The translations under genes were made by a program, and so were the position numbers. The notes beneath the pieces were generated by a model. It was not told the origin of the DNA. It saw only the letters and a program-made list of their open reading frames with translations, and ran no database searches. A stretch of 64,000 bases of DNA from Escherichia coli (GTDB taxonomy: Bacteria; Pseudomonadota; Gammaproteobacteria; Enterobacterales; Enterobacteriaceae): assembly GCF_001677475.2 (NCBI RefSeq), contig NZ_CP015229.1, one strand, 5' to 3'. Every line of letters starts with the position of its first letter. The first letter of the stretch is position 1. This document shows, piece by piece, positions 22,468-44,897 of the stretch.

Positions 22468-24885
<2,418 letters not shown>

Positions 24886-24930
24886 TCAACACAACGTTAT
24901 CGCTAGTTTGCCAGGCTCGATGTTGACCTT

Positions 24931-24975
24931 CCTCATCCTGCGGGGGATTAGGCAGGGAGGAGTTGCGGGGATGAG
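24931..24975 (-). promoter_or_regulatory. MalT boxes of the malPQ promoter
   Basis: GGATGA hexamers: minus-strand GGATGAGG at 24931-24938 and plus-strand GGGGATGAG at 24967-24975, 70-115 bp upstream of the malP start. Confidence 0.5.
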
Positions 24976-25344
24976 CAAGGAAATGTGATCTCGACCACTT
25001 AAAGCTAGTGCAAACCACAGGATTAGCAGCAAATCAATGCCATACAGCGCAGAAAATCTGTATCTAAGTGCAAAAAATGGCCGTTGCGTATTTTCAAAAA
25101 GCGGAAGGTAACTCTATAAATTAAGTAAAGGAGTGAAACAGTTTCACAAGTAAAATATCCAGTGTGCTCCATCTTATTCTTAATAGATTTATTAAGATCA
25201 TCTTTTTAGATAGCACTTTCATCAGGAATGAAGAAGAAACCCTTGCTTAAATGAATCTGATGAACATAAGGGAAATACCGCACAACCCAGTATTCACGCT
25301 GTATTAGCGTCGTTTTAGGTGAGTTGTTAATAAAGATTTGGAAT

Positions 25345-25360
25345 TGTGACACAGTGCAAA
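25345..25360 (+). promoter_or_regulatory. Candidate CRP site upstream of malT
   Basis: TGTGAcacagtGCAAA (one good CRP half-site, degenerate second), about 130 bp upstream of malT ATG. Confidence 0.4.
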
Positions 25361-25477
25361 TTCAGACACATAAAAAAACGTCATCGCTTGCATTAGAAAG
25401 GTTTCTGGCCGACCTTATAACCATTAATTACGAAGCGCAAAAAAAATAATATTTCCTCATTTTCCACAGTGAAGTGA

Positions 25478-28189
<2,712 letters not shown>

Positions 28190-39702: not shown

Positions 39703-42168
<2,466 letters not shown>

Positions 42169-43602
42169 CTATTTCAAGCGATAGTAAAGCTCACGGTACG
42201 ACTTCGCCGCGACCTGCCAGCTAAAATCCATTGCCATAGCCTGACGTTGCACAAACCGCCACAGTGAAGGACGGGACCACAGTACAAAAGCACGTCGAAT
42301 AGCCCGTAACAGCGACCAGGCATTACTATCTTCAAAGACAAACCCACTGGCGACGCCATCTGCAAGGTTCTCAAGAGAACAGTCAGAAACCGTATCAGCA
42401 AGCCCACCGGTGCGCCGCACTAACGGCAGCGTACCGTACTTCAATCCATAAAGTTGCGTTAAGCCGCACGGTTCAAAACGGCTGGGCACCAGAATGACGT
42501 CCGCGCCGCCCATAATGCGATGCGAAAATGCTTCGTGATAGCCAATCTGAACGCCCACCTGGCCGGGGTATTCCGCTGCCGCCGCAAGGAAACCTTCCTG
42601 CAGCACCGGATCGCCCGCGCCGAGTAGCGCCAACTGCCCGCCCTGCTCCAGAAGACCCGGTAAGGCTTCCAGCACCAGGTCGAGACCTTTCTGGCTGGTC
42701 AGACGGCTCACCACTGCAAAAAGCGGCACTTTATCGTCAACCTTAAGCCCCATTGCGATTTGTAACTGGCGCTTATTTTCCGCTTTATCTTCCAACGTAT
42801 CGCGGGTGTAGCGCGAGGCCAACAGTAAGTCCGTCTCTGGACTCCAGATTTTCTCGTCCACGCCGTTCAGTACGCCTGAAAGACGCCCTTCACGGTGACG
42901 CTGTTGCAACAGACCTTCCATACCGTAGGCAAACTGCGGTTCGGTGATCTCGCGAGCGTAGGTTGGACTGACCGCCGTAATGTGATCGGCATAGTACAGA
43001 CCGGCCTTCAGGAAAGAGATTTGTCCGTTGAATTCCAGCCCATGAATATTAAAGAATGACCATGGCAATTGGATGTCATTCATATGATGTGCATAAAACA
43101 TGCCTTGATAGGCCAGGTTGTGCACAGTAAACACCGACTTCGCCGGACGCCCGCGCGCCGCCAGATACGCAGGCGCAAGGCCTGCATGCCAGTCGTGCGC
43201 ATGCACCACATCAGGACGCCAGAATGGGTCAAGACCGCTGGCCATTTCTGCCCCAACCCACCCCAGCAGCGCAAAACGCAATACGTTGTCGGTATAGGCA
43301 AATAAGTTGGTATCGTGATACGGGCTTCCCGGACGATCATAGAGATGCGGCGCGTCAATCAGGTAAATGCCAACCCCGTTGTAATGACCGAACAACAGCG
43401 TGATATGTCCGGCGAAGGTATCACGACGGGATACTACCTGCGCATCGGTCACGCCACGGCGAATATCGGGAAATGCAGGCAACAGTACGCGAGCGTCAAC
43501 GCCGTCTGCGATTTGTGCTGCGGGTAATGCCCCAATAACATCAGCCAGACCGCCGGTTTTAAGCAGCGGGAACATCTCTGAACATACATGTAAAACCTGC
43601 AT
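42169..43602 (-). CDS. glgA: Glycogen synthase
   Basis: 477-aa ORF; N-terminal KTGGLADV motif. Confidence 0.97.
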
Positions 43603-44897
43603 TATCGCTCCTGTTTATGCCCTAACTTCCGTAGCATTTCGCGCGTTACCAGCACGATGCCTTCTTCTGAACGATAGAAACGACGTGCATCTTCCTCTGC
43701 GTTTTCACCAATCACCATGCCTTCCGGAATAACACAAGCACGATCGATGACGCAGCGGCGCAGACGGCACGAGCGACCTACCCATACTTCCGGTAACAAT
43801 ACGGCGGAATCAATGTTGCAGAATGAATTCACGCGAACGCGCGAGAACAGAACGGACTGCACCACCACCGAGCCGGAGATTACACAACCGCCGGAAACCA
43901 GTGAGTTAAGGGTCATCCCGTGGCTACCGGAGCGATCCTGCACGAATTTCGCTGGCGGTAATGATTCATTGTAGGTGCGAATTGGCCAATTGCGATCGTA
44001 CATATCCAGTTCCGGCACCACAGAGGCCAGATCGAGGTTCGCTTTCCAGTAAGCTTCCAGCGTACCCACATCGCGCCAGTACGGCTCGGCATCCGGGTCG
44101 GATTGTACGCAAGAGAGCGGGAACGGGTGCGCATAGGCCAGACCGGCTTCGGTGATCTTGGGAATCAAATCTTTGCCAAAGTCGTGGCTGGAGTTCTCAT
44201 CGCGATCGTCTTCTTCCAGCAGTTCATACAGATAGTCGGCGTCAAAGACGTAGATACCCATACTCGCCAGAGATTTGCTCGGATCGTTCGGCATTGACGG
44301 TGGGTTAGCAGGTTTTTCAACGAATTCGATAATTTTATCGTTCTCATCAACCGCCATAACACCAAATGCGGAGGCTTCTTCAATCGGTACTGGCATACAA
44401 GCAACGGTGCAACGTGCGCCTTTTTCGACGTGATCGATAAGCATACGCGAGTAGTCTTGCTTGTAGATATGGTCGCCCGCCAGGATTACCACGTATTCCG
44501 CTTTATAACGGCGGATAATATCGAGGTTTTGGGTGACCGCATCTGCGGTGCCGCGATACCAGTTTTCCCCTTTCATTCTCTGCTGTGCTGGCAGCAGATC
44601 GACAAACTCGTTCATTTCTTCATTGAAGAATGACCAGCCGCGCTGAATGTGCTGCACCAGAGTGTGGGACTGGTACTGGGTGATCACGCCCATACGACGG
44701 ATCCCGGAGTTGATGCAGTTAGACAGCGCAAAGTCAATAATGCGGAACTTACCGCCGAAGTGTACGGCCGGTTTTGCTCGCTTATTGGTTAAATCCTTCA
44801 GGCGGGTACCACGTCCTCCCGCCAGTATCAGGGCAACAGATTTCAATGGCAGCTGGCGCGCCAACATTAAGTGATCGTTCTTCTCTAAACTAACCAT
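43602..44897 (-). CDS. glgC: Glucose-1-phosphate adenylyltransferase
   Basis: Track ORF 43602..44933; start at ATG 44895-44897 ([17 protein letters not shown]) with AAGGAG upstream; 431 aa. Confidence 0.96.

Follow-up and report, generated by a model that had tools for sequence, protein, structure and literature searches.

A 15-bp palindrome in the malP–malT intergenic region of Escherichia coli and its conserved 11-bp core, a possible distal regulator-binding site

The malP–malT spacer and its central palindrome

The window, a stretch of 64,000 nucleotides of an Escherichia coli genome (NZ_CP015229.1), carries the divergent genes malP (22468–24861, minus strand, ATG at 24861) and malT (25484–28189, plus strand, ATG at 25484), both identified from the K-12 annotation and separated by an A+T-rich spacer (61% A+T) of 622 bp (24862–25483). 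The K-12 spacer has 611 bp, and the difference is caused by an 11-bp indel nearer malT: the segment TACCGCACAAC (25276–25286) is present in the window, in CFSAN061763, and in other Escherichia species and absent from K-12, REL606, and strain 107. Among 5426 complete E. coli genomes there was no exact match, the best identities being 98.9% for the spacer, 99.0% for malT, and 99.3% for glgP–glgC (40000–44000), so that the window belongs to an E. coli-like lineage outside that collection; window and K-12 differed at 7.3% of the four-fold degenerate sites of malT.

On the malP side lies the strongly conserved malPQ promoter control region (24929–25002, minus strand), with MalT boxes of the GGATGAGG type (24929–24980) and a CRP site (TGTGA at 24984–24988, centre 24991.5), which we take to be the elements of the malPp literature. 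This CRP site is presumably the one at −93.5 of malPp, which would place the malP start near 24898. Sequences far upstream of malPp were reportedly dispensable in early deletion studies. On the malT side, the CRP site of the malT promoter was recognized from its sequence at 25342–25363 (plus strand; TGTGA at 25345–25349, centre 25352.5) and is conserved at 0.9 or above in 78 species. Since CRP binds PmalT at −70.5 (PMC10882989), the malT start site falls at 25423, and the −10 box derived from it, GACCTT, fits the description in the same paper, with two of six positions matching and A−11 and T−7 kept. In the accessible literature, the only named inputs on malT are CRP, Mlc, H-NS/StpA, and sigma factors (PMC10882989 among the sources). 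About 110 bp upstream of this start site, a terminator-like hairpin, ACGCTGtatTAGCGT followed by CGTTTTAGGT (25296–25319, plus strand), has a stem ACGCTG...CAGCGT that other Escherichia species retain.

The central part of the spacer holds GTGAAACaGTTTCAC (GTGAAACAGTTTCAC) at 25133–25147, a perfect 7-1-7 palindrome of the form GTGAAAC-a-GTTTCAC, assigned to neither strand, whose 7-bp arms are 100% complementary around a single central base. The original prediction had placed a 15-bp palindrome in this region about 270 bp from the malP ATG and about 340 bp from malT, and both the element and its position were borne out, the measured distances being 272 bp and 337 bp (279 bp and 344 bp from the palindrome centre at 25140). 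Relative to the deduced malT start site the centre lies at −283, and relative to malPp presumably near −242; for a simple activator or repressor site, this is unusually far in both cases. The K-12 equivalent is NC_000913.3:3552745-3552759, where the last base is T and the annotation has no feature. The accessible literature, searched with the exact sequence, the spacer, and malT combined with OmpR, MetR, and ChIP-exo, contained no mid-spacer site and no binding data, and in the PPTP-seq supplements malT occurs in the role of a regulator and not once among the promoters that respond.

Perfect inverted repeats with 7-bp arms and a gap of 0–10 occur 84 times in the 64-kb window, five of them with a gap of 1 against about four expected. 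In first-order Markov simulations of the spacer, 6% of runs contained a 7-1-7 palindrome and 39% at least one inverted repeat with 7-bp arms and a gap of 0–10, while the exact pattern with up to two mismatches was found once in the window and was equalled or beaten in 15 of 100 shuffles. The palindrome by itself is within chance expectation and ordinary. It may have no sequence-specific function, being a chance palindrome in an AT-rich spacer that is perhaps bound non-specifically by nucleoid proteins such as H-NS or Fis, a reading that we hold at well under an even chance but only slightly below the one favoured further on. The chance expectation of 6–39% speaks for it, as do the distance from both promoters, the lack of any annotation or literature mention found, and an H-NS-like motif, TCTATAAATT, at 25113–25122 (the H-NS motif consensus is TCGATAAATT). 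How the same reading fares against the conservation of the segment is considered next.

Conservation within Escherichia and across Enterobacteriaceae

K-12 MG1655 and REL606 carry GTGAAACAGTTTCAT, in which the outer pair is broken. We counted the alleles with 31-mers centred on 25147, between which no cross-match is possible under the 28-base word of megablast. The C allele, which gives the perfect 7-bp arms, was found in 1845 of the 5426 complete E. coli genomes (O157:H7 is an example of a carrier), and the T allele, which leaves a 13-bp palindrome as in K-12, in 3486 of the 5426. As the two sum to 98% of the genomes, the 13-bp form TGAAACAGTTTCA is close to fixation in E. coli, and the 15-bp form belongs to a minority of genomes, a point in favour of the absence of function; other Escherichia have T or G at 25147.

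The orthologous 15-mers are GTAAAACAGTTTCAT in Escherichia sp. MOD1-EC7003, GTGAAACCGTTTCGG in E. albertii, GCGAAATTGTTTCAG in Escherichia sp. E1V33, and GCGAAATAGTTTCAG in E. whittamii. Only G--AAA--GTTTC-- is invariant across the Escherichia orthologues, and the outer pairs are broken in these other Escherichia. At four-fold degenerate sites of malT, E. albertii, E1V33, and E. whittamii differ from the window by 0.30–0.35, which sets the neutral identity within Escherichia at about 0.65–0.70. Windows of 30 bp over the palindrome were 0.70–0.73 identical, whereas the flanks at 25072–25131 and 25162–25206 reached 0.83–1.0. On these figures, the palindrome segment evolves within Escherichia at roughly the neutral rate and forms a dip flanked by two blocks of higher conservation, which again favours the absence of function. 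The outer two base pairs on each side would be a recent E. coli feature, still polymorphic and showing no sign of selection.

The two flanking blocks have contents of their own. The 60-bp block at 25072–25131, which includes ATCAAAAAGCGGAAGGTAACTCTATAAATTAAGTAAAG, is 0.83–0.93 identical among Escherichia against the neutral 0.65–0.70, and it contains the promoter-like match TTTTCA-18 bp-TATAAA as well as the H-NS-like motif. The block at 25162–25206 is 0.8–1.0 identical across Escherichia, better conserved than the 15-bp palindrome, and surrounds a longer inverted repeat with 8-bp arms, TCTTAATA-gatt-TATTAAGA (25178–25197), whose RNA fold is weak (−5.2 kcal/mol). Escherichia sp. MOD1-EC7003 (locus L005) has an unrelated insert of about 140 bp, presumably an ERIC/IRU repeat from its appearance, in place of window positions of about 25186–25310, which amounts to half of the central spacer; that part of the spacer is thus dispensable in this lineage, and the palindrome region is kept.

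For a wider comparison we assembled 80 malT loci from different Enterobacteriaceae species, from which 78 malP–malT spacers of rather even length, 493–686 bp, were extracted. In the full alignment of the 78 species, the palindrome columns were conserved at only 0.0–0.7, and the MalT boxes, both CRP sites, and the malT core promoter at 0.9 or above, as was the region taken to be the Mlc operator and leader. The picture changed when the 17 sequences from Escherichia, Citrobacter, and Salmonella were analyzed as a set. Their divergence from the window at malT four-fold sites is about 0.5, and the greater part of the central 330 bp is unalignable. The 11-mer GAAACAGTTTC (25135–25145), that is, the palindrome core GAAAC-a-GTTTC, was the best-conserved 11-mer of the central 330 bp, with a value of 0.947 against a mean of 0.62 (sd 0.105). 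The resulting z-score of about 3 is the maximum over about 320 overlapping windows in a close set of related species dominated by Citrobacter, so that this conservation is suggestive rather than decisive.

Several further observations concern the same columns. The pattern GAAA[CT]NGTTTC was found in 16 of 79 spacers, all from Escherichia, Citrobacter, or Salmonella, and in most species the start of the aligned core block is about 340–355 bp upstream of the malT ATG, despite varying spacer length. Enterobacter, Lelliottia, Leclercia, Pluralibacter, Silvania, and others read GAAAT(G/A)ATTAC there, and the family-wide consensus is GAAAT-N-RTTWC, while Klebsiella, Raoultella, Kosakonia, and Phytobacter had no recognizable element at the orthologous columns; its absence in Klebsiella and Raoultella is a further point for the reading that denies it a function. 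When each genus was represented by a single sequence (23 in total), the core was one of only three modest conserved islands in the central region. At least four of the seven symmetric pairs were present at the orthologous columns in 47 of 70 species, compared with 8.6% of background 15-mers, although kept symmetry follows automatically from kept sequence and is not independent evidence.

The 36 distinct recognizable versions of the element gave the consensus nnGAAAT-A-RTTWCTT. Pairs G3–C13, A5–T11, and A6–T10 were complementary in 89–100% of them, pair 7–9 was seen as T-A, T-G, or C-G, and pair 4–12 as A-T, A-A, or T-A. Each of the latter two pairs thus has two complementary forms and a mismatched intermediate, which indicates that in some lineages substitutions in both arms re-established the symmetry. 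The outer pairs 1–15 and 2–14 were complementary in just 0.19 and 0.36 of the versions, and positions 14–15 are conserved as TT without partners, so that the older motif was partly asymmetric and the long arms are lineage-specific additions to an older 11-bp near-palindrome. We interpret the 11-bp centre as a phylogenetic footprint that is real, if modest, and that keeps its distance to malT, as far as alignments can tell. It stands against the absence of function, since in three genera with saturated synonymous sites no other 11-mer of the central spacer is as well conserved as the core, which also stays at a constant distance from malT; to uphold that reading, the conserved core would have to reflect chance, low mutational input, or general constraints on DNA shape.

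The original prediction had proposed a site for a different dimeric regulator, with poor conservation among relatives of E. coli as the finding that would speak against it, and the outcome was divided. The core is the best-conserved central stretch in Escherichia, Citrobacter, and Salmonella and keeps its distance to malT, which upholds the proposal in part, but the full 15 bp are poorly conserved and no regulator can be assigned.

Two conserved islands flank the palindrome, neither assigned to a strand. The malP-side island, TCAAAAAGCGGAAGG (25094–25108), corresponds in many other genera to an A-tract followed by a KdgR-like box at the aligned position, a box that E. coli does not have. The sequence AATGAAATGNNGTTTCR, aligned with window positions 25094–25115, occurs in about 35 of the 78 spacers at a fixed 383–391 bp upstream of the malT ATG (e.g. 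at 199–218 in locus L036 and 248–267 in L064), its carriers (among L023–L083) being Enterobacter, Lelliottia, Leclercia, Kosakonia, Phytobacter, Yokenella, Pluralibacter, and others. Sequences with up to 4 of 19 mismatches to the KdgR consensus were found in 22 of 79 spacers against 3% of shuffles; they are absent from Escherichia, Citrobacter, and Salmonella and elsewhere lie about 35 bp to the malP side of the palindrome position. These boxes may represent an unreported KdgR-type input near malT/malPQ in the genera that carry them.

The aligned counterpart of the malT-side island, CAAGTAAAATATCC (25147–25160), is (C)TGAAATA in Citrobacter and Salmonella, and in the Enterobacter group it is GAAATAATATTTC. 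The latter is a 6-1-6 palindrome, aligned with window positions 25150–25162, that in many of the genera with the KdgR-like box lies about 52 bp from that box toward malT (for example, about 336–322 bp upstream of the malT ATG in L040 and about 334 bp in L036); of it, E. coli has kept just GTAAAATATCC.

Comparison with known operators and other readings of the element

The palindrome was compared with the operators of known regulators. The MetR consensus TGAAnnTnnTTCA (PMC5002191) is matched by the 13-bp core at nine of nine specified positions on the minus strand (TGAAACTGTTTCA), the sole match in 64 kb, and the K-12 allele additionally gives TTCAT, like the 15-bp MetR form ATGAA-n5-TTCAT. A site for this LysR-type regulator would tie malT or malPQ to homocysteine/methionine status. 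The consensus carries only about 17 bits, however, so that tens of chance matches are expected per genome, and it was picked after the fact among many possible consensus sequences. The outer T-G and C-A that define a MetR site are not conserved in E. albertii (...TTCG), E. whittamii (CGAA...), Citrobacter, or Salmonella (AGAA/CGAA...TTCT). MetR sites come as two in tandem adjoining the −35 box of the target promoter, whereas the palindrome is a single site with no second match in the flanks (by reading) and lies at −283, far from both promoters; nor does the accessible literature link MetR to the malT promoter. We therefore regard a MetR site as quite improbable.

The element was also compared with IclR-family operators. 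The E. coli IclR box TGGAAATNATTTCCA shares the 7-1-7 layout with GAAA/TTTC cores three bases apart, but the E. coli palindrome matches only 8 of its 14 positions. Versions from other genera come closer (GGAAAT..., ...TTTCCA in Citrobacter and the Enterobacter group): the Citrobacter version GAGAAATAATTTCCA (L019) matches 12 of 14, some Citrobacter match 11–12 of 14, and some Enterobacter-group and Citrobacter versions have a perfect TGGAAAT left half, all three results being hand counts. For the A/T-rich group 2 palindromes of the family, TGRAACA-N1-2-TGTTYCA (PMC8222616), the half-sites TGAAAC/GTTTCA equal TGRAAC but are 2–3 bp too close, with three mismatches and a register shift. Operators of this family are usually centred 20–80 nt upstream of where the gene starts, often in tandem at 18–22 nt; the palindrome is about 280–350 bp away and had no tandem partner at 18–22 bp. 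E. coli has eight IclR-family regulators.

One member of the family, KdgR, binds a box with the consensus RWWGAAACGNCGTTTCAKKA (PMC8222616, citing Rodionov 2004), which has GAAAC/GTTTC half-sites like those of the palindrome. Its core, GAAACGNCGTTTC, has a 3-bp centre, and the palindrome, with its 1-bp centre, shows 8 of 19 mismatches, and was rejected as a KdgR box for these reasons. The consensus sequences of KdgR, Cra, FNR, Fis, OmpR, and CpxR were all rejected, since for each, dozens to thousands of other window positions score as well as the palindrome. The operator consensus of Cra, a LacI/GalR-family regulator, is GCTGAAAC/GTTTCAGC. The palindrome has its half-site TGAAAC but lacks the central CG and has two mismatches to the asymmetric consensus, and 159 window sites match it equally well; within this family, LacI tolerates an extra central base pair at its natural O1.

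The palindrome had been described as half-CRP-like with the wrong spacing, and measurement agrees: (A)GTGA and TCAC(A), which resemble CRP core half-sites, are 7 bp apart, not 6 as in TGTGA-N6-TCACA. The region is CRP-regulated and divergent and already holds two conserved CRP sites, beside which a degenerate or atypically spaced third could be imagined. At the correct 6-bp spacing, however, 4 of 10 core positions mismatch, and 1091 window positions match equally well or better. The bases that CRP would need, G, T, and CAC, coincide exactly with the outer positions that are not conserved (K-12 reads TCAT), and the palindrome centre, at −283 for malT and presumably at about −242 for malPp, is at none of the class I/II distances (−41.5, −61.5, −71.5, etc.). 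On spacing, score, and conservation, a CRP site was rejected, and we give it very little credence.

A further possibility is that the element is the operator of an unannotated mid-spacer promoter and blocks a long upstream malT transcript or a short RNA. A weak sigma-70-like match, TTTTCA-18 bp-TATAAA (25091–25120, plus strand; −10 box at 25115–25120), agrees with 9 of 12 hexamer positions and is speculative as a promoter; its −10 box and surroundings are conserved within Escherichia, and activity of such a promoter would put the palindrome at about +6 to +21, a typical place for a repressor operator. A stricter promoter scan did not call it, though, and it is not conserved in Citrobacter and Salmonella, whereas the core is. 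The candidate transcript (84 nt) had no Rfam match and an unremarkable fold, with shuffle z-scores of −0.4 to −0.8. A 49-codon minus-strand frame that runs across the palindrome (25023–25172) is broken in E. albertii, as read from the alignment, and a small protein was rejected on this ground. A mid-spacer promoter with the palindrome as its operator therefore seems improbable to us.

The palindrome might finally act as an RNA hairpin, a terminator, or a DNA cruciform. A stem of 6 bp closed by a 3-nt loop is possible (−4.1 kcal/mol in a 35-nt context), but the stem is weak and AU-rich with no U-run after it, and 10 of 200 shuffles fold equally well. In the Enterobacter group the stem is not kept (three pairs), and the covarying pair 7–9 would fall in the loop. 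Rfam gave no match at the palindrome and the terminator scan called none there; with the weak fold and the z-scores given above, an RNA hairpin, a terminator, and a small RNA were rejected. A structure of this kind is the least probable of the readings considered.

A possible distal input to malT control

Taking the positions, the allele frequencies, and the conservation pattern together, we tentatively favour, at rather less than even confidence, an old distal putative binding site for some dimeric regulator. The inner 11 bp (25135–25145) would be an old element that has kept its place at about −283 relative to the malT transcription start, and the near-palindrome GAAAT-N-RTTWC would have been retained in many Enterobacteriaceae. 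A dimeric DNA-binding protein would recognize the GAAA/TTTC half-sites one base apart, a half-site geometry that is that of the E. coli IclR box and that the loose LysR-type MetR consensus would fit as well. Because the distance to malT is fixed and that to malP is variable, any action is more likely to be on malT, where candidate roles are those of an auxiliary or looping site or of an architectural site. The two outermost base pairs of each arm would be the recent, polymorphic E. coli addition that makes the 15-bp perfect form.

A broader version of a putative regulator site, which we consider unlikely, would make the central spacer a family-wide distal control module of malT, about 270–330 bp upstream of the start, with GAAA/TTTC palindromes bound by an IclR/KdgR-type regulator. 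Most genera would have a KdgR-type box and GAAATAATATTTC, while in Escherichia, Citrobacter, and Salmonella the KdgR-type box would have disappeared and only the middle site remained, which E. coli would then have sharpened to a perfect palindrome. If such a module exists, expression of the maltose activator would be tied to a second carbon-source signal.

The regulon that MalT governs as master activator is a textbook case, and the known transcriptional inputs on malT, CRP and Mlc, act near its promoter. Between the promoters of malT and malPQ, about 300 bp have no assigned role, yet their length and a few islands are conserved in Enterobacteriaceae. If the core is not a site, a conspicuous palindrome in a well-studied control region is simply ordinary. 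If it is a real binding site, it would constitute a distal input to malT control and would offer an example of operator turnover between genera.
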